Virus record (IMG/VR): IMGVR_UViG_3300044835_000040
Span: 65,071-129,070 of that record
Length of the DNA: 64,000 nucleotides
Direction: 5' to 3' (one strand)
Origin: a virus
Below the pieces are notes generated by a model. That model had not been told where the DNA came from. It worked only from the letters and a program-made list of their open reading frames with translations, and did not search any database. The translations under genes were made by a program, and so were the position numbers. Each line of letters opens with the position of its first letter. Within the stretch, counting starts at the first letter, position 1. Below, in pieces: positions 3,501 through 51,700 of this stretch.

Positions 3501-5012
3501 GAAGTCAAGGCGAACGAAATCTCCAACGCGAACAGCCTCGCGCGCAACAACACTCTGAGTAACAACGCGACGAACCATCGTGGCGCGAAAAAACACGCTG
3601 GCGGTGGGCGCATCGGCGGGCACGGCCTGCAGGACTCGGTGCCGCTGCAGTTCGGGATGGCGGCGCCGGGGGAGCTGGTCGTCAACCGTCACCAGGAGCG
3701 GCTGGTCAACGGACTCCTGCACCGCTTCGGTACGAGCCTCGGGCAGGTCGTCTCCTCGCACCCGTGGCCGCACAACGCGGGCTTCGCCTCTGGCGGATTC
3801 GTACCGAGCATGGCCTACCCCGGCGCACAGGGCAGGATCGACCAGGGCGTCGACTACGGCGCGGCTGGTCCGGTCCGGGCGATCCTGCCGGGCACAGTCC
3901 ATTCGGTCGGCCTGTGGCCGGGCTGGCCGGGCACGGGCGGCCTGACGTACTCGACGGGTCGCGGCGGCGTGTACGTGATGGAGGACTTCGCTCCAGGGGC
4001 CGGGATGCGGCCGGGTATGCACGTCAATGCAGGGCAGGTCATCGGCGCGGCGACGGGCGGCTCGTCTGGTATCGAGACCGGTTGGACCAACTCCAGCTTC
4101 TCGGGGCCGATCGTGCGCTACGGCAGCGCAGCCGACGGTACGCCCATGTCGGGTGGCAAGAACTTCGCGCGGTTCCTCGGTGGCGGACCGGGCGGTGGCG
4201 TGGCGGGAAGCACCGCGCTCGGGGCTGGCGTGATGGCGCAGATCAAACTGGCGCGCCAGAAAGCGACGGGCGGGATCCCGTCGGCGCTCGCGACAGCGGC
4301 GTACAACTCGATCGCGCTCGGTGCGGAAAAACGGATCAACTCGAAGATCGGCGCGGCTGGCGGCACGGGGATCGGGGGGCTGCCGGGCTCGACATCGCCG
4401 GGCGGCTCGCACGCGGCGAACGAAGCGCTCGGCCGCCAGATGATGCTCGCAGCGGGCTGGCCCGCGTCGCAGTGGCCGTCGCTGCAGAAACTGTGGACGC
4501 AGGAGTCGGGCTGGGACGCGAACAGCGTCAACTCCAGCTCGGGCGCGTACGGGATCCCGCAGTCGCTCGGGCACGGCAACCCGTTCCCGCTCGGTGTCGC
4601 TGGCCCGCAGATCCAGTGGGGTCTGAACTACATCAAGGAACGCTACGGCTCACCGTCGGGGGCGTGGGCGCATGAGGTCTCGAACAACTGGTACGGCGCG
4701 GGCGGGCGGATCCCGTCGTGGGGCGGCTGGAACAAGATGGGCGGCTCGGGCGTCTTCAACAAACCGACGCTGATCGGCGTCGGGGACGGTCACGGCGCGG
4801 AGAAAGTCTCGATCACGCCGCACACGCAGGCCGCTGGCCGCGGCGGGCGCGGCGGGACGGGCGGCGTGCAGGTGGTGTTCCAGCCGGGGTCGATCATCGT
4901 GCAGGGTGCTGATGAGAAAGCGGCGCAGGAACTGGTCGACAAGGTGATGCACAAGCTGGCCGGTGAGCTGGAGAACATGGACATGGAGTCGGAAGGATCG
5001 ATTAGCCAATGA
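534..5012 (+). CDS. tail tape measure protein with C-terminal M23-like and lytic transglycosylase domains
   Basis: 1492 aa, Ala/Gly-rich and helical; IDQGVDY M23-like segment; LWTQESGW...GAYGIPQ...NYIKERYG SLT motif; lies ahead of baseplate genes. Confidence 0.93.
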   Translation: MAASVVGSFEIIDKASRPIKGIRDAAIEADLAVKDLGRSLDKVGTQKQLSMMSNTGEKIRRLATDADQAAESSDHVARNLERVGAPQLANNLNTTNRSIANTSSAAKTAERDVGDMSDRVDVLGKRSEKAAGGLRGLSATLPGLKAALVATLVPLVGFAAQGIGSLLAGVTSLLPKLTDLTGMFGPMGVAFTGMGVAMITTKLAFNDLAKAMNGNKKALEELTPQGKAFLATLKLYKPVLQEIRSSAQEGLFPGLNVAVRQLASAQPVLSQIVKGMGSTLGGFAANASKQFTGTGFLTDFQAITEGGQRTVGRFGEALLHLANVARNFLTAALPFTDWLTHTLVHFSVLAERSSTAARETGRLGEMFQRTQSALTTFGGILKNVFDIVKAVGHASRSMGEGLWESIDRTTKKWADFLSGGQGQNDMVSYFTRMQPVLHSVGKFFGDLVKGLGELAGGTGAQAAFRQLDEAIPSLVKGISTLTEAFGPSVILAFSEAVKLIGTLASDSGPVGGMLHLFAGVLQTVNSLIKQIPALGILMSTALAAFGTAAILGRITGMENAVGKLARSWFGVTGAANEAAAAESRAAGVGVSGGVAAARGRYPAAPAAGYSRAATAAESGSQNSFAGLMMTGAAGGAALKQRAGSLIKGLPSAALGGLAAGAEFLAPLMVLQGIFGAVGGQGGVGERAASGLNAGTFGLSGLLGGPFVPHPDIGGGAAAERSQAAFMRSFATGRGSSVNLGGGMPTFELAGAKRPGFNAVTGAFTGQGVTGRIAQNQISSLRTESHANEQALQGKFGHQSTTEQGFTRGQLSAEITALHDYEGYVQSAIAKARTHGTELAQGFGTAYSIYERSYGPQKAFAKTSSEVLGSMKHLGPQGKQALGAGVLSWAKELEAREPALRKPIEAWIKSVEHGMDGMGQHVRIVNGEIFSNTNSKWPEIAKAIEGPAAHAEYVTRGIFSRIFQDAVAQLEALGYSKTSATALIKGVEHGEVKANEISNANSLARNNTLSNNATNHRGAKKHAGGGRIGGHGLQDSVPLQFGMAAPGELVVNRHQERLVNGLLHRFGTSLGQVVSSHPWPHNAGFASGGFVPSMAYPGAQGRIDQGVDYGAAGPVRAILPGTVHSVGLWPGWPGTGGLTYSTGRGGVYVMEDFAPGAGMRPGMHVNAGQVIGAATGGSSGIETGWTNSSFSGPIVRYGSAADGTPMSGGKNFARFLGGGPGGGVAGSTALGAGVMAQIKLARQKATGGIPSALATAAYNSIALGAEKRINSKIGAAGGTGIGGLPGSTSPGGSHAANEALGRQMMLAAGWPASQWPSLQKLWTQESGWDANSVNSSSGAYGIPQSLGHGNPFPLGVAGPQIQWGLNYIKERYGSPSGAWAHEVSNNWYGAGGRIPSWGGWNKMGGSGVFNKPTLIGVGDGHGAEKVSITPHTQAAGRGGRGGTGGVQVVFQPGSIIVQGADEKAAQELVDKVMHKLAGELENMDMESEGSISQ

Positions 5013-39640: not shown

Positions 39641-40017
39641 GACTCACGAGCGTGCTGTCGCTCGTGTGCCCGCTCGTGGGGCTGGGGCTGCTCGCGGCGA
39701 ACGCAGGCGTGCTCTGGGGGCTGTCGGCGCTGTTCTTCATGGTGTCGGCGTACGCGGTTGGTCGCAGCGACGGTAGGTGTCCGGCGTGCGAGGCAAGATC
39801 CGGCGGTGCGTCCGGGCGGGACTCGACAGTGGAGACGGATCGTGCTGAGCGGCCGCTACCGGCTGACGCTGAAGGTCGAGCGGGCTGTCGGTAGGCACGA
39901 GGCGCGGCCACGGATGGACGTGATCAAGGATTCGCTGACGGCGCAGGTGATGGATGACAGGATCGACTGGCCGACCTTCGAGCATCGTCTCGGGCGGGCA
40001 CTAGAGAGAGAGGGCTG

Positions 40018-40299
40018 ATGGCTCAGGAGACGAAGACAGAGAAGGCGCAGCGGCTGCTGGACGACAACAGGGTGTTCCCGATCGCGGTGGAAGACGGCAG
40101 CGGCGTGTACGTGGTGCGCGGGGACACGAAGGCGTACCTCGTGACGGTGCTGCTGTTGACCCCGCGCGAGACGGCGGTACGGCTCGGCGGTGAGCCTGCG
40201 AGCTGCACGTGCGAGGCCCGTGGGCTGTGCTCTCACATCCTCGCGGCGGACGCTGCGTTCACGGCGCACCACATGGGCGGGACGGCGCCGCGCGCGTGA
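40018..40299 (+). CDS. SWIM zinc-finger protein
   Basis: CTC...LCSHILAA. Confidence 0.75.
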   Translation: MAQETKTEKAQRLLDDNRVFPIAVEDGSGVYVVRGDTKAYLVTVLLLTPRETAVRLGGEPASCTCEARGLCSHILAADAAFTAHHMGGTAPRA

Positions 40300-40619
40300 G
40301 CAAGATGGGCCTGAACCTGCAGCGCTTCGCTCAGGCGATCGGTGCGCACGACGTGACCAATCGGGGTCGCTGCGTCGCGAACGGGATCGGCATGGCGGCG
40401 TTCGACATGGACCGGCTCGGGATCGAGGAGGGCGAGGAGGTGCTGCCGGGCTACCCGGTCACCGCCGACGGCAAGGGCACGGGGAACTTCCGCGTGATCT
40501 GCGACGCGGACCACGATGCTGAGACCGAGACCGAGAGCGAGGAGCTGGTGGTCGTCGGCCGAGCGATGGAGACCGTGGAGCCGGGCGAGGACGTGCGGAT
40601 CGAGCTGGGGGACACGTGA
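40296..40619 (+). CDS. hypothetical protein
   Basis: Coupled ORF. Confidence 0.5.
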   Translation: MSKMGLNLQRFAQAIGAHDVTNRGRCVANGIGMAAFDMDRLGIEEGEEVLPGYPVTADGKGTGNFRVICDADHDAETETESEELVVVGRAMETVEPGEDVRIELGDT

Positions 40620-41200
40620 GCTTCAGCGCGATCGTGGTCGATCCGCCTTGGCTATACCCGCCGACGAAAGGCCGAGGGTCGAAGTACGCGTGGCGTGAGG
40701 GGAGCGCTTCGGGCGAGCGCCGCGAGTTCGACTACCCGATGATGAGCCTGGAGGAGATCTCCGCGATCGGCGTGGAGGATGTCGCAGCCGACGACGCGCA
40801 CCTGTTCGTCTGGACGACACAGCGTCACCTGGAGGCCACGTTCGGGATCTGCAGGGCGTGGGGCTTCGAGCCGTCGAGCACGCTCGCGTGGTGCAAGGCA
40901 CCGCATGGCTGGGGGCCGGGCGGCGTGTTCCAGTCGACGCTGGAGTTCGTCCAGTACGCACGCCGTGGGCAGCCTGCGCCGAAGACGCACGCGGTCGACC
41001 GGCAGTGGTGGAGCTGGCCGCGGACGCAGCACAGCGCGAAGCCGGAGGCGTTCCTGGACATGGTGGAGGCGGCGTTCCCCGGCCCGTACCTGGAGATCTT
41101 CGCGCGCCGCGCACGGATGGGCTGGGAGTACGCGGGCGACGGCTCGCTCGGCACGGTCGAGGTGGCTGGCCTGCGGCCGCCGGGGCAGGTGGCGGCGTGA
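40616..41200 (+). CDS. MT-A70 family adenine methyltransferase
   Basis: DPPW, AHLFVWTT, AWGF, HSAKPEAF, YLEIFAR. Confidence 0.92.
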   Translation: MSFSAIVVDPPWLYPPTKGRGSKYAWREGSASGERREFDYPMMSLEEISAIGVEDVAADDAHLFVWTTQRHLEATFGICRAWGFEPSSTLAWCKAPHGWGPGGVFQSTLEFVQYARRGQPAPKTHAVDRQWWSWPRTQHSAKPEAFLDMVEAAFPGPYLEIFARRARMGWEYAGDGSLGTVEVAGLRPPGQVAA

Positions 41201-43031
41201 GCGAGTTCCAGCGGCTGCAGCGCGAGAAGGAACGGGAGCATGTCCGCCGGTTCCACGTGCTCGCGAAACTCATCTTCTGGGTGTGGGTGATGGTGTTCAT
41301 CGCGCTGCTGCTGCACGAGGTGCTGCCGACGTTGGCGTGGCAGATCCTAAGCGTCGTGGTGTGGCTGTTCGTGATGCGCGTCCTGTGGGTCGATGCGCAT
41401 CTGGTCGAGCCGCCGCCGGAGGAGTATCCGACGACGCCGGAGCCGGTGAAGCACGTGCCGCCGCTACCGCCGGAGCCGGGGCCGCCAGAGGCGCCGCGGC
41501 CGCCGTTGCATAGACCCGTGGACTGACAACTGAGGAGGTAGCTGATGACCGCTGAACAGAAGCCGAGCATCGGACGGATTGTGATCTTCGACAACCCGGA
41601 GCACTACCAGAACCCGGTGCCCGCGATCGTCACGCAGGTGCGCGACGGGGACGCCGTGGTGGTGACGGCGTTCCCGCCCGGCATCGCACCGCAGGCGCAC
41701 GGTGTGATCGTGCCGAAACACGACGGCTCGGGCGACCAGGGCTTCAGCTGGCAGTGGCCGGAGCGCATCTGATGGGCGTCGGGGCGGTGATAGACACGTC
41801 GCTTCTGATCATGGGAGCGCTGGTCAGTGTCGGGGTCGCGCTGATGGCGCTGGCGGATCTCGGGAAGGACGAGGCCAAGGACGGCGCGGCTGGGGCGGCT
41901 CTCGCTCTGCTGCTGTTCGGGTTCGTCGGGATCGCGTGCGCGGTCGGTGCGTTGGCGGTCGCCGGGAACGCGATCTTCGGATGATCGTGGTCAAAGCGGA
42001 TCTGCTGTCAGCGATCAGCAGCGGCCGTGACCGCACGCTGTGCGAGGTCGAGATCGCGAACACGGGGGAGCAGGGCATCGGCTCGCGAGGCACGTACGAG
42101 GTGCGTCTGTACAGCGCGTCACGGACCGGCAAGCGGGGTCGTCTGATCCGGACGGCGCGCGTGGAGGACTGGCCGCGCGAGGCGAAGCCTGCGTGGCGGC
42201 TGATCCAGGCAGCGATGGAGGCGCTGGGATGACGGAGGGGAAGCCGGAGCGTCGCGGCAAGCCGATCGAGCCTGACGAGTTGGGCTGGTGGACTGGGCTG
42301 GTGGCCGTCTCGGGTACGAACCCGGTCACGCGCTCGGCGGTGCCGGATCCTCCTGACGGGAAGGCGCCGGAGCGCTCGTGCATGATGCTGTTGCCGGAGG
42401 AGGTATTGGGCTGATGGACGTGCAGGTCCGCATCTACATCGAACCGGCGGTGCGCGGCGTCGCGGGCGTCGGCGTGGAAAGGACCGGCAGCTTCGAGTGG
42501 AGTGTCGAGGGTCGGCGCGCGATGCCGAAGCCGCAGTACTGCGCGAGCTAGACGATCTCGTGCGGCGGGGCGGCTGATGGGCGCCCGGCAGCAGCGGCAC
42601 TACAAGCCGAAAGGTCGCACGCCGGACCGTCGTCGTGACGAGCCGCTGGACCCGAAGCGCAAACCGACGGCGCGCGACATCGCGGGCGACCGCAAGCCGG
42701 AGGCGCGGGTCCATCACGCGGTCAGCACGTGGCGGATCGAGCCGCACGGCGAGGTCTACGGGTTCGACGAACTGGGACGCGGATGAGCGGCTTCGAGCGC
42801 CGTGTCGAGACGTGGGAGTGCGCGTTCCCGGCGGCGCGCGTCGGTCCCGGCGGCCGCTATGAGATCCCGGAGAAGACGGTCGCCTATCACGGCGAGAAGC
42901 GGATGGCGCTGGAATTCGCGGTGCTGCACATCGCGGCGATGGTGGGCCTGCCGCCGTGGAAGCCGTTGCGTCGCGAGGTCGCGAAGCTGGCGACGGTGAG
43001 CAAACGCGTGGAGCTGGTCAAGCTCGGCTGA
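41197..43031 (+). other. cluster of small coupled hypothetical ORFs, several with TM segments
   Basis: Chain of overlapping short ORFs (41197, 41545, 41772, 41981 and following). Confidence 0.5.
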
Positions 43032-43063
43032 GGTCCGGCCGCGCCGCGGCTTACGATGCGCGG

Positions 43064-43479
43064 GTGCAAGGTGCGGAGCGGGACAGCGAGGAGGGCGCGG
43101 AGGTCATCGTCCTGCGGCCGGGGCTGGATCCCGATGCTGACGCGCTGATTGAAGCGCGACCGGAAACCGAGGCGCTGCCACCACACGAAGTTCAGCATGG
43201 ACGCCACGCTGCACAAGGTGTTCTGCCGGGAGTGCGACGAGGAGATCGATCCGTGGGAGGCGCTGGACCGCATCGCGTCGCAGCCGGAACGGTGGGTCAC
43301 GCAGGGGCGAGCTGCGCGTGGTGAGGCCCGGCGCGAGCAAAGCGCTGGAGGAGCTGCTGCGCGAGGAGCGCAACGCGAAGGCCCGCAAGCGTCGCCGTGA
43401 GGGGCCGCGCAAGGAGCTGACGGCGGACGAGCGCCGCGCGATCATGTTCCCGCTCTCGACACGCTCGGGGCCGTCGTGA
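43064..43479 (+). pseudogene. zinc-binding protein gene broken by two +1 frameshifts
   Basis: Coding-like text passes through three frames: AEVIVLRPGLDPDADAL / KRDRKPRRCHH...CREC / ALEELLREERNAKARK. Confidence 0.5.
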
Positions 43480-44309
43480 GGGACTGGCGGGCACCGATGG
43501 AGGGCCGTGCGTGCTCGCACTGCGGCTGCGTGAAGTTCCCGCTGCTGTGCGTCTACTACTGGCGCCCGCCGCGCACGCAGTACGGGCACACGTACCCGGA
43601 GTTCTACTCGGCACGAGCACGCTGCATCGACCGCCGGACGTGCGAGGCCCGCGTGACGAAGCGCACCGAGCGCGCGAAGGTGCGCGGCTCGAAGATCGTG
43701 CTCGCCGAGCCGCCGGGAGATCCTGAGCAGCGCGCCCGCAGCGGGTTCTGCAGCTGGTGCGGCAAGCCGATGTGGCGCAAGAACAAAGACGGCCAGACGG
43801 TGATGGATCTGACCCGCAGCTACCACAACGAGGTCAAAGGCGACGGTGAGTGCAGGGAACTGTTCTACGCCAGCTACACCTACAGGGCCGATGGGGCGGT
43901 CGCTGGCCGCGCGCGCCTGGAAGGCAAGATCGAGCTGGAGTGCGTGGACTGCGGGAAGGTCTGCGAAACGATCCAGCCCAATCACCCGGACGCGCGGTGC
44001 CGATGCGGGCACAAGCGCAGCGAGCACGTGCAGGGAGGCGCGGGCTACAAACAGGTGTGCAACGTCGAGGGCTGCACGGGCTGCCGGTCGGGCGAGGGCG
44101 AGTCGATCTACCAGAGCGGGTTCCGGGCGATGGGCGCGCCGTGGGAAGCGGACCATGAGATCGAGCTGGAGGACGGCGGCGAGCACTCGGTCGAGAACCT
44201 GCGGTGCCGGTGCGTGCCGTGCCACAAGCGGAAGACGGCGGCGAGCATCGCTGCACGGCGCCCGCCGAAGCCGAAGCCGGTCGAGCTGACGGAGGCGATG
44301 TTCGAGTGA
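43476..44309 (+). CDS. Cys-rich HNH endonuclease
   Basis: WEADHEIELEDGGEHSVENLRCRCVPCHKRKT. Confidence 0.8.
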   Translation: MRDWRAPMEGRACSHCGCVKFPLLCVYYWRPPRTQYGHTYPEFYSARARCIDRRTCEARVTKRTERAKVRGSKIVLAEPPGDPEQRARSGFCSWCGKPMWRKNKDGQTVMDLTRSYHNEVKGDGECRELFYASYTYRADGAVAGRARLEGKIELECVDCGKVCETIQPNHPDARCRCGHKRSEHVQGGAGYKQVCNVEGCTGCRSGEGESIYQSGFRAMGAPWEADHEIELEDGGEHSVENLRCRCVPCHKRKTAASIAARRPPKPKPVELTEAMFE

Positions 44310-44564
44310 GGGGCGTACCGGGCACGAGCTGCAAGATGACGGTCGGCCGGTGGGACGGCGAGCTACCGGTGCCGGGCGACTTCCTGCGCACCCGTGCGGG
44401 CAGCTGCTACCGGATCGACGAGGTGAGGCCGGGCCGCGTCAAACGCGTCGGGAGCTTGCGGTGCACGCGGCTGGAGCACGACGCGGTAGCTGAGGGCGAC
44501 GACGGCGTGTGGATGTGGTACTGGAACCCGCGCGTGCGGACGCTTCCACGGTAGGATCCTGCGC

Positions 44565-44676
44565 GGCTGGGATGGGGAAGGGCTGGCTGGGCGGTGACGG
44601 CAAAGGAAAGCACCGGATAGGAGTGGTAGGCTGCGCCGCACTGGCTAGGAAGGGTCTGGTTCTTGTCGACCTAGCC
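44565..44676 (+). repeat. pentamer-periodic array 1 (GGN-NN) with 3' hairpin
   Basis: 15 in-register pentamers 44565-44639 (10 begin GG, 14 begin G) after a TAGGAT -10 at 44552; GGCTAGG/CCTAGCC hairpin 44643-44676. Confidence 0.75.
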
Positions 44677-44707
44677 GCTGTACAGACAACGCTCAGGAGA
44701 GCTTCAT

Positions 44708-45304
44708 ATGGACTACGAGGTGCATTGGACGGGCATCCAGCCGCTCGTCATTCACAACATCAGGCTGGCGAACCCGCTCGACCCGTACGTGAAGGCGCTG
44801 AAAGCGATCACGGGCAAGCGTAAGAAGACCGAGGACGACCACGCCGAGCTGATGCGGCTGGAGTGGGAGGGCGGCCTGTATCACGACGACGACCTGGGGC
44901 CGTATGTCCCGGCGTCCTACCCGGTCGCGACGCTGCGCGCGTCGGCTGCGCTGACGAAGCACAAGGCGTCACTGCAGCGCGGCATGATGGTCACGGCCGT
45001 CGATGGCGGCGATCGTGTGCCGATCGAATACGAGGGGCCGCGCGACATCAAGAGGATGTGGGCCGACCAGGAGACCTTCCTCGACTTCCGCGCTGTCCGT
45101 GTCGGGCAGGCGCGCACATTCCGCGCACGGCCGAGGTTCCCCGACTGGGCCGTCACGTTCCGTGTGGTGCTCGACCCGGAGGTGATCGACGCTGACGTGT
45201 TCGAGTCGATCAACGAGCGTGCTGGTCGGCTGATCGGGTGCGCAGAGTCCGCCGAAGGTCAGCGTGCGCGCTTCGCCGCGACGATGAGCGAGCTGGTCGC
45301 GTGA
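44708..45304 (+). CDS. stand-alone Cas7/RAMP-like protein
   Basis: beta1-G..PL.IHN N-terminus, PYVPA...ATLR.SA helix, RARPRFPDWAVTFRV thumb, AGRLIG...RF C-terminal loop; RBS AGGAG. Confidence 0.7.
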   Translation: MDYEVHWTGIQPLVIHNIRLANPLDPYVKALKAITGKRKKTEDDHAELMRLEWEGGLYHDDDLGPYVPASYPVATLRASAALTKHKASLQRGMMVTAVDGGDRVPIEYEGPRDIKRMWADQETFLDFRAVRVGQARTFRARPRFPDWAVTFRVVLDPEVIDADVFESINERAGRLIGCAESAEGQRARFAATMSELVA

Positions 45305-45510
45305 GCGTCGCGGGGGAGCGTGTCAAGAAGCTGCTCGCGCGCAACGAGGTCGAGCGCGTGCGTGCGGGCACAGCGCATCTGCTCGGGCTGCGCTCACGCG
45401 TGGAGCAGCGTGAGGACGCCGCGGAGGCACTGCGCGAGGGACAGGATCTGAGGCACCCGGAGCTGCCGGGCGCCATCAAACGTCGGGCGCGCGAGCTGCG
45501 CTCACGGTGA
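45301..45510 (+). CDS. 69-aa basic helical partner protein of the RAMP-like gene
   Basis: GTGA-coupled to the RAMP-like gene; ends 7 nt before array 2. Confidence 0.6.
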   Translation: MSVAGERVKKLLARNEVERVRAGTAHLLGLRSRVEQREDAAEALREGQDLRHPELPGAIKRRARELRSR

Positions 45511-45517
45511 ACCGCCG

Positions 45518-45737
45518 GGACCGGAATGGGCAGGAAGGCAAGGGAAGGGCGCGGATCGGCTCGGACCGCCGGGGATCGGCCTGGACAGGGACGGACTGGT
45601 AGGCGCAGGATCGGATTGGTTGGGATCGGCATGGACGGCGAGGGACAGGCGCGGCAGGCGAGGGACCGGAATGCAAGGGACGCGTCGGGCTCGCGAAGGC
45701 TGGGAGCGGAAAGGAAAGCACCGGCCGGGTAGGCGGA
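45518..45737 (+). repeat. pentamer-periodic array 2 (GG[A/C]-NN), candidate guide-RNA array
   Basis: 44 consecutive pentamers in unbroken register; 43 begin G and 34 begin GG (third base A20, C9, T3, G2); last two bases variable. Confidence 0.9.
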
Positions 45738-45997
45738 TACGCTGCGTCAGCGTGAGGACCGACACGGCGATCACGCTGACGCAAATCCCGCCGGGGAAGT
45801 GCTGCCGGTTGTGCGGCCGCATGTTCGTGCTCGCTCGCCGCAGGCGCTTCACTGGGAGCCGCGGCAGGCACTCGAAGCAGCTCGTGTTCACGGAGCCGTC
45901 GAAGGTGGTTGTGACGGTGCTGATCAAAGACTGGGATCCCGCCGTCGAGCAGGCCGCGTAGACTGTCTGTACAGCAACCGATTTACGGAGGTGCGAG

Positions 45998-46222
45998 ATG
46001 GTGAGCGCGCAGCTGCGCTGGTACTCGGTCAGTGGTGCGTACGCGGGCGCGCTGGTCGCCGCCGAGAACGCGGAGGACGCGATGCGTCTCGCACGCGAGC
46101 AGGCATCCGGCATCTCCGACTGGTACGACGCCGCGCCGATCGAGGACTCCGGCGCGAGGCTCCGCCGCGAGCCGCCGGGACCGCCGACGGCCGCTGGCGT
46201 CTACTACGCGTGGGCCGAGTGA
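45998..46222 (+). CDS. hypothetical protein with conserved leader
   Basis: GCAACCGATTTACGGAGGTGCGAG-ATG. Confidence 0.6.
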   Translation: MVSAQLRWYSVSGAYAGALVAAENAEDAMRLAREQASGISDWYDAAPIEDSGARLRREPPGPPTAAGVYYAWAE

Positions 46223-46454
46223 GCGCCGCCGAGTACACGGACGCGGAGACGATCGACTACCGCGTGGTCGAGTGCGTCGGCGCGATCCCCGGCTCGATCG
46301 GCTACGAGGATCATCCCGATCTGCGGCTGTCGACGAGGATCGAGGAGGCGCTGAACGCGGTGGCAGTGGATGGCTTCGTGCTGGAGCGGATCGAGCAGTG
46401 GAAGCCGGTCGAGGGACACGAGCGCGCGATGGTGATCATGCGGCGCCCGAGACC

Positions 46455-46634
46455 GTGACGTGGGAGGTCTACCGCAAGCAGCGGGTAGACAAGAACCCGC
46501 AGGCACACAAGACGCACTGCAAGCGCGGACATCCGTTGAGCGGCCCGAACATGCGGATCATGGCCGACGGTAAACGAGTGTGCTTGACGTGCCGCCGATG
46601 GCGTGAACGCAGACTCCGCGCCAAACGAGCTTGA
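46455..46634 (+). CDS. isolated HNH-associated zinc-finger tail
   Basis: KTHCKRGHPLSGPN...RVCLTC with no nuclease core. Confidence 0.6.
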   Translation: MTWEVYRKQRVDKNPQAHKTHCKRGHPLSGPNMRIMADGKRVCLTCRRWRERRLRAKRA

Positions 46635-46655
46635 CGCTCTGGCTACGATCGACGC

Positions 46656-47363
46656 ATGGCAGCGAAGCGCAGCGGACGGACCGCCAAACGAGCCGGGACC
46701 GCGAAGCCAGCGAAACCTGTCGGTAAGGCGCAGCCCCGCCGGTCAACGAAGGCGGACGAGACGGTCGCGAACGGCGATATCCCGCAGTCGGTGAAGACCC
46801 TCGCGAAAGCCGACCGGTACAGGCTGATCTACGCCAAGCAACGCGCCGGGCACGACCTGCAGAAGGTCGCTGAAGAATTCTCGACCGACAAGGAACCGAT
46901 CAGCGCTCGCCGCGCCCGTGAGATCTGCGACGAGCTACGCGCCGGGAAGAACGTGTACCCGGTCACGACTTCCCCGCAGGAGGCGCTTCGGATCTTCGAC
47001 GAGCTGATCGACCAGTACGACCACGCGATCGGGATCGACGTGGAAATCCTCGAAGGCGCGTTGAAGGCGAAGCACTGGTCCGCGGCGACGGGCGCTTCAA
47101 AGCGGCTCGGCGAAGCGCGCAAGGAGCGCCTGGAACTGTTGATGGCTCGCGGGGTGCTCCCGGCGAACCTCGCGATGCTGGAGTGGCACGCGGACGCGGA
47201 ACTGGTGTGGACGGCGATCGAGGAGGTCTTCGAGGAGAACGGGATCCCGATGGAGATCCGGGAGGAGATCACGCGCAGGGCGGGGTTGCGTGCTGGGCTC
47301 GCCGCGGATGAGGTGCCGCAGCCGGACGGGCCGGGGGAGCTGGTGTCGGGCGAAGTGGTGTAG
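46656..47363 (+). CDS. HTH protein, possibly terminase small subunit-like
   Basis: Basic N-terminus, HTH, helical C-terminus; no large terminase nearby. Confidence 0.4.
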   Translation: MAAKRSGRTAKRAGTAKPAKPVGKAQPRRSTKADETVANGDIPQSVKTLAKADRYRLIYAKQRAGHDLQKVAEEFSTDKEPISARRAREICDELRAGKNVYPVTTSPQEALRIFDELIDQYDHAIGIDVEILEGALKAKHWSAATGASKRLGEARKERLELLMARGVLPANLAMLEWHADAELVWTAIEEVFEENGIPMEIREEITRRAGLRAGLAADEVPQPDGPGELVSGEVV

Positions 47364-47471
47364 CGTCCGATGGTCGCTGTAGACCTGTCGCATGAGCGGG
47401 ATCGTGGTCGGGTTGTGCGGGCTGGCGGCGTGGACGGGGTTCTGGCTGGCGTACGGGCATCTGCGGCGCCG

Positions 47472-47529
47472 TTGACGCTGCGACCGATGGTCGCTATAGT
47501 CTGCGGCTGCAACCGAGAGTGGAGGTGCG
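47472..47529 (+). promoter_or_regulatory. promoter with operator and conserved leader
   Basis: TTGACG-17-TATAGT; palindrome GCGACCGATGGTCGC at 47480-47494; followed by GCAACCGAGAGTGGAGGTGCG. Confidence 0.88.
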
Positions 47530-47586
47530 AGAGATGTTCGTGATCGACGTGTGTCAGCCGGGCTTCATGGATGCCGGGTCGATCGG

Positions 47587-47838
47587 ATGAGGTACGAGAT
47601 CACAGCTCGCGGCCTGTACGCGGAGTTCGTGGCGGTCGTCAAGGTGGAGAGCGCCGTCGATCCGGAGACTCTCGCGGTGCGGGTGATGGAGGCCGTCGCG
47701 CAGCACATCGCGATCGACGTTATCGGTGACGAGACGCTGACGGCGCACCTCGAACCGTTGCCGTCGACGCGGCAGCATCCGCTCGCGGGTGTACGGGTAG
47801 GCCCGTACACTGTGCGGATGGAGGGCTTCTTCGCGTGA
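47587..47838 (+). CDS. hypothetical protein
   Basis: ATGA-coupled to an 18-aa leader ORF. Confidence 0.55.
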   Translation: MRYEITARGLYAEFVAVVKVESAVDPETLAVRVMEAVAQHIAIDVIGDETLTAHLEPLPSTRQHPLAGVRVGPYTVRMEGFFA

Positions 47839-48197
47839 GCGCGGGGTTCCCGACGGTCGAGCAGGTGCAGGCCGCGACCGATGTCGAACGGGTGCTGCGC
47901 TGGAACCGGTTCCTGCCGCGCCCGCGCGAGGACAGCGATGTCGCGGTGCTCTCGGCTGTGGTGGATCGGCTCGCCGAGCTGCGCGAGCAGGACCCGGCCG
48001 CGTACACGGAAGCGTCGAAGTCGATCGGCTGGGGCTGATGCCGCAGTGGAAGGTGATCCGCGTCCGTGCGCGCTGCCGCGATTGTCACGAGGAGCGTGCG
48101 AGCAAGAACGTCGCGGCGGTCGAGGAGTGGGCGTCGACGCACGCTGCGGACCTGCAGCACAAGGTCGGCGTGGTGGTGTCTCGCAAGAAGGTCTTCG

Positions 48198-48755
48198 ATG
48201 AGCGTCGCTGAGCAGCTGGCGGATCTCCGCAGCGGCGTGTACCTCGGGCGCATCGGGCACTACCGGACGGACGAGGACCTGCCGCTGCTGTTCTTCGGCG
48301 GGCGCTTCAGTAGCTTCGCGGTGATGCCGATCAAGTGCGAGCCGCTGTTCCTGCCGTCGGCGCCGTTGGGCTACCCGACTCGTGAGCACTGGTTCGCGGC
48401 GCACAAGACGAGGAGCTTGACCGAGCACAAAGCGATCTCGTTCGCGCCGTCGCCGCAGGCAGCAAAGGAGCATGGTCGGCGGGTGCAGCTGCAGCCGGGG
48501 TGGGATGACGGGATCAGCTTCGCGGTGATGGTGGAGGGCATCCGTCGGCAGGCCGCCACGTACGAGGCGTTCGCTGAGCAGCTGGTCGCGACGGGGCAGC
48601 GGCTGATCGCGGAGGATTCCCCGTCGGACTTTGTGTGGGGGATCAGGGACAAGGGCGGCGGGTACACGGGCCGGAATCTGCTCGGGCGCGCGTTGATGCG
48701 CGTTCGGGGTGAGCTGCAGCGCGGACATGGACTGGAGGCGGCAGATGGGGAGTGA
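48198..48755 (+). CDS. NADAR/YbiA family protein
   Basis: YPTREHWFAAHK, SPQAAKEHGR, LVATGQRLIAEDSPSDFVWG, GRNLLGRALMRVR. Confidence 0.92.
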   Translation: MSVAEQLADLRSGVYLGRIGHYRTDEDLPLLFFGGRFSSFAVMPIKCEPLFLPSAPLGYPTREHWFAAHKTRSLTEHKAISFAPSPQAAKEHGRRVQLQPGWDDGISFAVMVEGIRRQAATYEAFAEQLVATGQRLIAEDSPSDFVWGIRDKGGGYTGRNLLGRALMRVRGELQRGHGLEAADGE

Positions 48756-51700
48756 TAGAGGCACGGTCGAGGAGGGCGGCGGCGGGATTCACATGGTGTT
48801 CGCGACGAAGCGCGCGGGCGAACGGCTACGCGAACGCGGGATGACGATGGTGCTGTACGAAGGGCCGCACGGCGGCGTGATGGTCGTGCCGGTCGTCTCC
48901 GCGGCACTGGGCAGCCTGCAGGCGCTCGACGGCGGCATCGCGGGATTCCTGGAGGGGTCCTTCGGGCCGCAGGCGCAGCCGACAAACCGGCAGCCGATCC
49001 GGGTCGTGACGCCGCAGTCATTCACGGCTAATCAGGACGCCGGGTCGGAGCGCCTGACGATCGAGCCGCTGCTGTGAGGGCGAAGCTGTCCGCGACGGAG
49101 CACGTGGTCACGGTCACGCGGGAGGATGCTCGGTGCTGCGATCGGCACTCCTGCTACGTGGCTCGCTGTAGCTGCGGCTGGGAGACGGACAGGCGCGACA
49201 CGGAAGCCGATGTGGGCTACGCGTACGATGCGATCCGGGCGCACAAGATCGACGTGCTGCTGCATCACTCGCGCGTCAAATTCACGATGAAGCGGGAGGG
49301 ACTATGACGACGAGACGGCCGGTGCACGCGCGGCAGGCAGGCGTGCTGATCTCTCGGCAGGCGGGCTACGACAGCCGCTGCTCGATGTGCGACGCGATGA
49401 TCCTGGGCTACGGCGGCTCGATGTCGGCGAGCGAGCTGATGAGCAAAGAGATAGAGACCGGCCGTTCGCACGAGCAGCATCCGCTCGACACGCTGGACAC
49501 GATCGTGAAGGTCGACGGCGAGTGGGTTCACGCTGACTGCGCGCGTGACGCGGGCTACGAGGTGGGCGAGTGAAGCGCGTCGGTCCGCATCGTCGGCTGA
49601 AGCGCAGCGAGAGGCCGCTGGGGCAGCGCGAGTGGCGTTTCTGCGTGTGGGGCGGTAGGTCGGGCTGGACGTGGGTCGGCTCAGCGGAGGACCGGTTCTA
49701 CGCGGCGCGTGAGGGCGAGCGCGCGTTGTGGTGCCAGCCGCCGCTGCTGGTGGTCGCTCGGCAGTTCACGGCGGCGGTCGAGGCGATAGGCTCTGATCTG
49801 ATCGTGGAGGCGTTCGTGTTCGAGGATCTGATGGCTGAGGTGAGCAGCGACGCGCCGACGGGCACGGTCGCAGCGGCGGGATTGTGGGAGCGGCTGGTCG
49901 AGCGAGCATTCGAGACCCTGGAGGTGAGCGATGGCGCATGGCGAGAAGAAGGCTGACGTGCTGGGCCTGATCGAGCGGCTGCTGGACACGCCGCGCTTCA
50001 CGGTTGACTTCGGGGAGATAGACAGGTACGGGGTGTGGATGCACGCGGTGATCGAGGCGCGGATGTACGTCGCGCGGTGCCGTGCGGGCACTGCTCCGAA
50101 ACAGACCGGCAACCAGCGTGCTGAAGCAGTGGAGAAGCTGCTCGGGCGGATCGTCTCCCCGGACCTGATCCATGATCTCGCGGACGAAGGCGCTCGCGCG
50201 CGGCTCGCTCTCGCTGCTGCGGGGATCCGGGTCACGCCGGATGAGAAGTTCACGGCGCCGCGTGCGGAGGACTGCGGTTACGGCTGCTGCAAGGCGGGAG
50301 ATGAGGGCATCGGCTCGGAGGTGATCGAGCGCGAGGAGCGCTTCAAGGTCACGAACAAGATCGGCGGCACCGGCTACTACGACGCGAACGGCCGGACGGT
50401 CGAGGAGATGTGGGATGCGTTCGGTGGCCGCCGTGGGCCGAGCGCGCCGAAGGCGATCGAGCTGGAGTGGCGGATGGTGGGGCCGTGGCAGTCGACGCCG
50501 ATCGTAGAGGTGGCCGCGTGCACGCCGAACACGCTCGGGATCGTGATGCGTTCCAGTCCCGACCAGCCGTTCTCGCCGGGGTACATCGGAGATCTGGAGG
50601 AGCTGCGCGCTGCAGGGTATGAAGCACGGCCGCTTCACGGCGGCGTGGTATCGGCCGAGGACTTCCCGGAGCTGCACGCCGCGCTGAGAGGCGTCTACGG
50701 CACCTACGGCGACACGTTCAAGCTGCCCGACTTCCGTGGGCGCGTGGTCTGATGCTGAGCGCGCTGGACGTGGAGATCGTCGGCACTGAAGACGAAGCCG
50801 AAGCACGGTGCCGTGAGTGCTCGGAGAAGCACTTCGGTCCGCTCCGCGCGCAGCGCATCATGGCGTGGCTGGAGCACGACGAGACCGGCTTCGGTCCGCG
50901 GGCGCTCGCGCGGTGGCAGGCGAACGAGGACGCGATGGAGCGCGGCTACGAGTGCGACTGCGGCAAGTTCCCCGCTGAAGATGCGTCGTGCCCGTCGTGC
51001 GGCGTGTCGCCGTGCGTAGACTGCGGCAAGCGGCTCGACTCGCTCGACACGCCGCCGGTGGCGTCGTGAGCAGCTTCGGCTTCTACGGGACGAACGCGGA
51101 CCCGCAGGAGCTGCTGCGCCAGCGCAACGATGACGTGGGCATGGAGCACGCTCGGCAAGAAGCTCTGTACGAGCGGCATATGGAGGAGCGGCACGAGCGC
51201 GAGGAGCTGGACCGGCAGGCCGAGGATGAGCGCCGCCGGGACGAGGCGTTCCAGACGCGCCAGTTCGAGGAGTTCTTGGAGCGCCAGTACTTCGAGTCGC
51301 TGGAGATCATGCATGGCTACGAGAGCTACGAGGCGAGCGACTGATGACGCTGACCGACATGGAGAGCCGCGCTCTCGACGCCGCGAAGCGAGGGTGAATG
51401 CGTCGACCGGCTGACTGTATCGACGACGCCGCGGACTTCCGTGCTGAAGCGGTCAACGCTGACGGCGGGCTGATCGCGCTCAGTGACCAGCTGGAGGCGA
51501 AGGCGCTCGGGCTGGGGCTGCTCGGCGGTGAGCAGGAGCGGTACTCGGGGATCCGTGCGCTGGCGTTCCTGATCGCGCTGAGCGACGCGATCTTCGACCA
51601 GCTGGAGGAGGAGCGCGGCACGCTCTGCCCGCACATGGTGGACCCGTCGGCCGCGGAGATCATCGACTGTCACTTCGGGTTCGTGGCGTGCCGGACGTGC

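Follow-up and report, generated by a model that had tools for sequence, protein, structure and literature searches.

A probable VIPR locus with tightly packed candidate guides in a 129-kb soil phage

Genes, arrays and other features of the locus

The locus described here lies in a 64-kb window (the whole stretch of DNA that was analysed, 64,000 nucleotides), the second half of a phage genome that is a single contig of 129,070 bases with 68% GC; the genes of the window are all on the plus strand and belong to phage-type families. It contains a gene for a 198-aa protein, vipr, with one tract of pentameric repeats upstream (array 1) and a second one downstream (array 2), two small ORFs, a stem-loop, and the two arms of an inverted repeat (Table 1). 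HNH endonuclease genes, which may be homing endonucleases or accessory genes of the nuclease type, occur on both sides of it (43476-44309 and ~46380-46634), and the same early or accessory region encodes a SWIM zinc-finger protein (40018-40299), an MT-A70 family DNA methyltransferase (40616-41200), and a NADAR-domain protein (48066-48755); a tail-collar domain is also encoded in the window.

Table 1. Coordinates of the features of the locus, numbered along the window; the units of array 2 are putative.
Feature	Coordinates	Strand	Remarks
Array 1, upstream candidate vrRNA	44555..44631	+	~13-15 pentamers, in-register listing; strict GG core 44565-44594
Inverted-repeat arm GCTGTACAGACA	44677..44688	.	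perfect 12 nt; CTGTACAG core 30 nt upstream of the vipr ATG
vipr, 198-aa RAMP (Cas7-like) protein	44708..45304	+	PHROG, PDB and AlphaFold2/Foldseek matches
Small 69-aa ORF, candidate accessory gene	45301..45510	+	start overlaps the vipr stop (GTGA); ends 7 nt before array 2
Array 2, putative unit 1	45518..45602	+	17 pentamers; GGACC GGAAT ... GGACT GGTAG
Array 2, putative unit 2	45603..45657	+	11 pentamers, ends GGCGC GGCAG; weakest boundary
Array 2, putative unit 3	45658..45734	+	15 pentamers; GGGACCGGAATG at 45662
Stem-loop, 13-bp perfect arms	45743..45783	+	just 3' of array 2; overlaps the start of the next ORF
Small 69-aa ORF with CCxxC motif, second candidate accessory gene	45752..45961	+	GC3 0.91
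Inverted-repeat arm TGTCTGTACAGC	45964..45975	.	31 nt upstream of the ATG at 45998

Regarding the repeats, 34 of the 43 in-register pentamers of array 2 (45518-45732) begin with GG. In a count over 44 pentamers, G fills column 1 in 43 of them, column 2 holds 35 G and 9 C, column 3 is divided among A (23), C (10), G (7), and T (4), and columns 4 and 5 are mixed; GC takes the place of GG in 9 pentamers of the 44, one more begins with CG, and the register is held over 215 nt with zero indels. In 100-nt sliding windows, GG occurs in phase at up to 17 of 20 positions, the median over the windows being 4, whereas CC, the complementary signal, reaches 7 at most. The run score of array 2 was 20.5, compared with maxima of 5-6.5 in 20 first-order Markov simulations of the 129-kb genome; no other stretch of this genome, nor of the 20 simulated ones, came near that score, and the reverse strand of the genome gave no run at all. 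At 40331-40450, within the coding ORF 40209-40619, a weak period-5 GG signal (9-10 of ~28 pentamers) does not rise above chance and does not represent an array.

Standard repeat and RNA searches returned little: Tandem Repeats Finder reported just a period-10 fragment at 45548-45580, a poor result that is due to the array being too variable, and the only Rfam match in 40000-50000 at E ≤ 1 was a snoRNA at 40737, attributable to chance, with no hammerhead or other family. Likewise, blastn of 44200-46000 against 50,697 phage records found no match. An ORF of 68 aa (45526-45732) stays open through array 2; its codon-position GC is flat (0.68/0.70/0.71), and therefore it does not look coding.

As for array 1, the run score of its core is 6, which equals the chance ceiling, and the register continues to 44631. 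This array is credible only because it shares a 3' 15-mer and GGTAGGC with array 2, keeps the register, and lies just upstream of vipr; homologous loci also have arrays upstream of the vipr gene. Its 3' end reads AAAGGAAAGCACCGG ATAGGAGT GGTAGGC, and the conserved 3' element of unit 3 of array 2, at 45710-45734, reads AAAGGAAAGCACCGG CCG GGTAGGC. The sequence-only reading had placed AAAGGAAAGCACCGG near the ends of unit 3 and of array 1, and this element does lie there, at 45710 and 44602, its sole occurrences in the 64-kb window.

The ORF between vipr and array 2 (45301-45510) has a coding-like codon-position GC of 0.84/0.50/0.81. Beyond array 2, the fold of 45728-45800 has an energy of -38.1 kcal/mol (z -4.35), with 1 of 200 shuffles as stable, and this strong hairpin may serve as a 3' cap or as a terminator; the stretch that follows array 1 forms only a weak 7-bp stem, with a fold no better than that of shuffles (z +2.21). 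A shared ~40-nt tail after arrays 1 and 2 is absent, and scans of 44100-46100 for sigma-70 promoters and intrinsic terminators returned none. Finally, the 12-nt inverted repeat brackets vipr, array 2, and the two small ORFs, and CTGTACAG has four copies in the window (42107, 44678, 45967, 57209) versus 0.31 expected, a number reached in 0 of 100 shuffles; the motif, or the inverted repeat, could be a phage promoter, an operator, or the ends of a cassette.

The vipr product and its pairing with arrays in other phages

The 198-aa protein matched phrog_4652 (E 1.4e-43), a PHROG without known function, and no Pfam family. When a profile of 54 homologues was used, the sole sequence match in the PDB was entry 36pp, "SUSP1 Vipr protein", with E 8.7e-59; the single sequence matched the same entry over residues 6-180 with E 5.1e-20. 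The AlphaFold2 model had a pLDDT of 96.2 and a pTM of 0.89, and its top Foldseek matches were the Csm3/Cas7 backbone subunits of type III and type VII CRISPR complexes (74 chains at E ≤ 0.001; best 9g9f_D, 4.6e-6). The frame is intact, with codon-position GC of 0.68/0.45/0.87; identity is 54-67% to the nearest proteins and ~29-30% to the Felixounavirus homologues. A TRAP-like ring protein binding 11 triplets, which had been among the candidates, was dropped after the RAMP homology was found. By analogy with its homologue, the protein should coat the RNA of the repeats.

VIPR (Viral Interference Programmable Repeat) is a CRISPR-like silencing system first described in 2026, and according to the preprint that introduced it (bioRxiv 10.64898/2026.04.26.720920), Vipr is a phage-borne RAMP protein usually found with a single accessory gene (vap). 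The guide, or vrRNA, is there described as 9-16 YNNGG repeats (GGY/NN) followed by an invariable 3' tail; Vipr protomers coat these repeats, whose NN dinucleotides pair with double-stranded DNA by a one-nucleotide skip rule, a pairing that represses transcription of competing phages or satellites. Further details given in the VIPR preprints are a length of ~40 nt for the tail, which is a pseudoknot in the SUSP1 clade, and a thumb that periodically breaks the guide-target duplex; the companion structure preprint (bioRxiv 10.64898/2026.04.26.720927) assigns one Vipr protomer to each repeat. The first preprint distinguishes seven VIPR types, mentions the alternative repeats NNNGG, YNNNG, and NNNNG, and reports vrRNA arrays interspersed with hammerheads as well as contiguous "staggered" arrays, in which each vrRNA starts at the end of the one before (legends of its fig. 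S17 and S18, and Methods). Two later preprints describe solo vrRNAs and more non-canonical repeat motifs. Bench work on VIPR has so far dealt with GGY/NN type II systems only.

The pairing of gene and array was surveyed in other phages. A tblastn search with the 198-aa protein returned 130 phage records, all below 60% identity, and a single-protein search of viral and genome contigs gave no confirmed relative; a 15-sequence alignment of the closest proteins, used as the query, retrieved 46 metagenome and 38 viral loci, none of them above 44% identity. Together with six annotated phage loci (Gordonia phages Trine and MakoManhole, Mycobacterium phage LittleE, Pseudomonas phages Medea1 and LESphi2, and Escherichia phage allfine), these make 90 loci, of which 16 are duplicates at the protein level and many lie on contigs too short for the flanks to be seen. 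GG-pentamer arrays of 7-17 units adjoin the vipr homologue on the same strand in all six annotated loci, and the pairing is present even in the 39% GC coliphage. Over the 90 loci, a GG-pentamer array was found beside the homologue on the gene's strand in 53 and on the opposite strand in 2. The phages that share this pairing are very diverse. Among 16 long loci without GG arrays, 15 had period-5 repeats other than GG (e.g. GTTNN) a few hundred bases downstream of vipr, as judged by eye and without a chance control.

Several side observations concern these loci. The Vipr clade with a D-S-R G-loop (L024, L026, L031, L033, L070, L075, L079, L022, and others) has no GG arrays, and it carries GTTNN or TnnGT repeats at ~3600-4300, after the gene, again without a chance control. 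In Trine (L001), a "hypothetical protein" CDS at 3591-4394 overlaps the GG-pentamer array at 3634-3698, and in LittleE (L004) another one at 2554-2943 overlaps the array at 2666-2860 on the opposite strand; both CDS calls may be spurious.

Two of the retrieved loci, L013 and L025, carry gap-free GGA-type arrays of 30-44 pentamers packed against genes; these are clean GGA/NN arrays, with A as the third base in 39 of 40 pentamers of L013 and in 122 of 132 of L025. In a maximum-likelihood tree, the Vipr of L025 is the partner of the window protein with support 88/82, both being on long branches. A 40-pentamer GGA/NN array of L025 contains a tandem duplication of 70 nt (14 pentamers; 1570-1639 and 1640-1709, identical at 69 of 70 bases); the duplication looks like one guide unit that was copied, which fits guide-sized units inside a contiguous tract.

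Regarding the accessory genes, neither of the two 69-aa ORFs of the window has a Pfam or PHROG family or a homologue in the 90 related loci. The accessory gene found downstream of vipr in the six annotated loci, homologous in all six (vap1), has no counterpart in the 129-kb genome (best tblastn E 0.25).

The short motif GGA is the core motif of CsrA. It is conceivable that the GG tract acts as DNA or in some role other than that of a guide, such as iterons, G-quadruplex DNA, a low-complexity coding sequence, or an RNA sponge for a GGA-binding protein, e.g. CsrA; GG every 5 nt could form two-tetrad quadruplexes, and the 68-aa ORF is open through the array. However, the strand-specific link to a Vipr homologue (53 versus 2 of 90 loci) points to an RNA partner of Vipr, the ORF lacks a codon-position GC signal, and other clades use GGC, GGT, or GTT, so that GGA is not a conserved feature; explanations of this kind are highly improbable.

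Third repeat base, guide units and targets

In the SUSP1 Vipr structure, as reported in the companion preprint (bioRxiv 10.64898/2026.04.26.720927), the first G of the repeat is read by H17 and D177, and the second by R138 and W178; the pyrimidine at position 3 sits in a pocket made of E71, M72, C173, T175, and R179, from which purines are excluded, and K33 is located at the skipped base. These residues were mapped onto the window protein via the protein of phage allfine, which is near-identical to the SUSP1 sequence, in one MAFFT alignment, and the loop length differs in the clade of the window protein. The residues that contact the two G and the target backbone are kept, H16, R141, E180, and K32 of the window protein corresponding to SUSP1 H17, R138, D177, and K33. 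The pocket is replaced: SUSP1 E71, M72, C173, position 175, W178, and R179 become S70, Y71, I176, C178, S181, and A182.

This replacement can be set beside the composition of the array. The GGY consensus, with a pyrimidine as the third base, does not hold in array 2 (A 23, C 10, G 7, T 4 of 44); the preprint, in its description of the repeats, allows "a related consensus" that includes NNNGG, and therefore the failure of GGY does not exclude membership of VIPR. From sequence comparison we infer that the kept G contacts match the near-invariant G of column 1, with column 2 relaxed, and that the replaced pocket matches the non-pyrimidine third column; with less certainty, recognition of the third base may be relaxed or changed in the clade of the window protein. 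An aromatic residue at the W178 position was considered as a strict predictor of GGY and rejected, since that position is G, H, M, or R in some GGY loci.

As for the division of array 2, the sequence-only reading had proposed that a recurring GG(T/C)AG-GC motif, in register, splits it into separate guides. The motif was exactly as described, with GGTAGGC at 45598, 45728, and 44625, and GGCAGGC at 45653, all in the GGNNN register; the 12-mer GGGACCGGAATG was also confirmed at or near the start of units 1 and 3 (45517 and 45662), and it occurs nowhere else in the 64-kb window. The three strings of variable dinucleotides that had been listed are reproduced letter for letter when positions 4-5 of the pentamers are read from 45518.

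The motif GGTAGGC closes both arrays and recurs inside array 2 at 45598, where its identity to the end motif of both arrays is the ground on which the boundary between units 1 and 2 was drawn; the end of unit 2, GGCAGGC at 45653, is one base off. In array 2, a GC pentamer comes directly after each of the three GG[TC]AG pentamers, and the probability of at least three such pairs was 0.008 with pentamers permuted and 0.0006 with columns permuted. Units 1 and 3 have the same 12-mer start and share further 5' pentamers; a two-pentamer repeat such as GGACC GGAAT arises in 19-30% of permutations, and for this reason it is weak evidence by itself. The sizes of 17, 11, and 15 pentamers are near the published 9-16, and unit 1, with 17, exceeds that range. 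The contiguous arrays described in the preprint and the 14-pentamer duplication of L025 also speak for separate units. The full A-rich 3' element, AAAGGAAAGCACCGG...GGTAGGC, stays in the pentamer register and is found only at array 1 and at the end of array 2, and the internal units of array 2 have no tails between them. In all, three guides of 17, 11, and 15 pentamers with motif punctuation are a plausible candidate arrangement, for which the chances are slightly better than even.

Within a VIPR locus, array 2 might instead be a single vrRNA of ~43 repeats, or two of them, one at 45518-~45661 (~29 pentamers) and the other at 45662-45734 (~15), GGYAGGC being ordinary repeat content except at the true 3' ends. 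Such an arrangement is possible, at well below even chances. It is consistent with the restriction of the full AAAGGAAAGCACCGG...GGTAGGC element to array 1 and the end of array 2, with the repeated 12-mer at 45517 and 45662, which is the clearest internal landmark and divides the array into two, with the unbroken tracts of 30-44 pentamers in related GGA-type loci, and with the motif at 45653 reading GGCAGGC. However, the GGTAGGC at 45598 is the same as that at both array ends, permutation seldom yields three in-register GG[TC]AG+GC pairs (0.008 and 0.0006), L025 has an exact duplication of 14 pentamers within a 40-pentamer tract, and vrRNAs of 9-16 repeats are the ones described in the preprint.

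Regarding targets, the preprint (bioRxiv 10.64898/2026.04.26.720920) describes natural ones as matched at ≥80% of the NN positions under the 1-nt skip, found by a search with nhmmer, and it reports that self-targets are absent in VIPR systems. The earlier observation, made by eye, of no self-target in the present sequence agrees with this: when NN (skips 0-3) and NNN (skips 0-2) were compared with the phage's own 129-kb genome, the array itself apart, the guides performed like shuffled ones. Among viral contigs, five exact 8-dinucleotide NNx seeds gave 10, 20, 2, 8, and 31 matches (71 in total), none of them extending past 10/17, and one exact 8-dinucleotide seed gave 63 matches in genome contigs, again none past 10/17; the best extended seed matched 10 of the 17 dinucleotides of unit 1 (L102, L107), and the rest matched 8-10. 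In 418 kb of related VIPR loci the best match was 7 of 11 dinucleotides, the same as for shuffled guides. Exact seeds miss scattered mismatches and are far less sensitive than the published nhmmer search, so these results are no evidence against targeting. The 3' element, searched in viral contigs as the pattern AAAGGAAAGCACCGGN{3,8}GGTAGGC, gave 0 matches.

The idea that the variable dinucleotides carry guide information in an RNA, read with a one-base gap, finds backing in homology, since the arrays flank a Vipr homologue and the published rule is NN with a 1-nt skip; the division into units gained no confirmation from the target search that had been proposed for it, with dinucleotide strings and shuffled controls, which returned no target for any unit in the phage's own genome, in the contigs searched with seeds, or in the related loci.

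It might be argued that the arrays are decayed, inactive remnants of vrRNAs beside an intact vipr: 10 of 44 pentamers are without GG and the third base is variable, a degeneracy above that of canonical arrays, the seed scans found no target, and a vap1 homologue is lacking. Against decay, the vipr frame is intact with a GC3 of 0.87 and the RNA-contact residues are conserved, 43 of 44 pentamers begin with G, and the register runs without an indel over 215 nt; moreover, internal degeneracy is frequent in working vrRNAs according to the preprint (bioRxiv 10.64898/2026.04.26.720920). Decay is improbable.

A more speculative proposal, doubtful at present, is that the clade of the window protein, with a G-loop of E-S-A where other Vipr have D-W/Y-R, uses another grammar. 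Only the first G would be strictly fixed, whereas the third base, either unconstrained or with a bias towards purines, might contribute to the reading of the target; the guides would stand head to tail, split by an in-register GGYAG-GC, with the A-rich GGAAA GCACC added at the true ends, and pseudoknot tails would be absent. If true, this would be a new way to set filament length and to mature vrRNAs.

Affiliation of the locus and significance

The presence of a Vipr homologue flanked by arrays, together with the gene-array pairing over 90 loci, indicates that 44555-45961 is very probably the VIPR locus of a 129-kb soil phage, in a divergent form with tightly packed guides. By analogy with SUSP1, both tracts would be transcribed as vrRNAs, and each pentamer would be bound by one Vipr protomer, which would grip bases 1-3 and leave positions 4-5 free; the free NN would pair with double-stranded DNA having the same dinucleotides one skipped base apart, and the resulting filament would block transcription in a competing phage or satellite. 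Less certainly, array 2 would be a tail-less, back-to-back trio of guides split by GG(T/C)AG-GC, and array 1 a fourth guide; the AAAGGAAAGCACCGG...GGTAGGC element and the hairpin after array 2 may stand in for the 3' tail, which is likewise a less certain step.

The closest comparison is the type II VIPR of SUSP1 (Vipr, vap1, and vrRNAs; 36pp), which is alike in having a homologous Vipr of ~200 aa, in being phage-borne, and in the lack of a self-target above shuffled strings in the search made here; in both, pentamer arrays lie on the same strand up- and downstream of the gene, with GG fixed and positions 4-5 variable, and the residues for G1, G2, and the backbone contacts (H, R, an acidic residue, and K) are common to the window protein. 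The two differ in the third base, which is A-biased or relaxed in the window and not a pyrimidine, and in the G-loop, where W178 and R179 are replaced by S181 and A182. In addition, the window has 43 gap-free pentamers without the ~40-nt pseudoknot tails, and no vap1 homologue.

Compared with the "staggered" arrays and NNNGG repeats of the preprint, as these are described in its legends and Methods, the array of the window is also gap-free, and its consensus is looser than GGY; since array 2 has no gaps, each putative guide starts at the end of the preceding one.

As for CRISPR, the RAMP fold is common to Vipr and to Cas7/Csm3 on crRNA, as are, according to the VIPR preprints, the binding of one protomer per guide repeat and a periodic break of the duplex by a thumb; the period is 5 nt with 2 paired bases in VIPR, whereas it is 6 nt with 5 paired bases in CRISPR. 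Unlike class 1 CRISPR systems, the window locus is without CRISPR repeats, cas genes, or an adaptation module, and, by analogy with the described VIPR systems, its target would be double-stranded DNA read with a skip.

The purine-biased or relaxed third base with its rebuilt pocket, the tail-less tract with its putative punctuation, and the lack of vap1 set this locus apart from the SUSP1 type; the seven-type classification of the preprint may or may not cover these features already. For GGA-type or NNNGG repeats, the matches listed in a search of literature from 2025 were unrelated PAM or lineage-tracing work.

In conclusion, the locus is a natural example of a rebuilt pyrimidine pocket, combined with a third repeat base that is mostly a purine and with candidate guides in one unbroken tract. 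If active, it would show how far the grammar of the repeats drifts and which residues set that grammar; it would also reveal what determines the length of guides that have no tail, knowledge that would help in engineering compact RNA-guided DNA binders.
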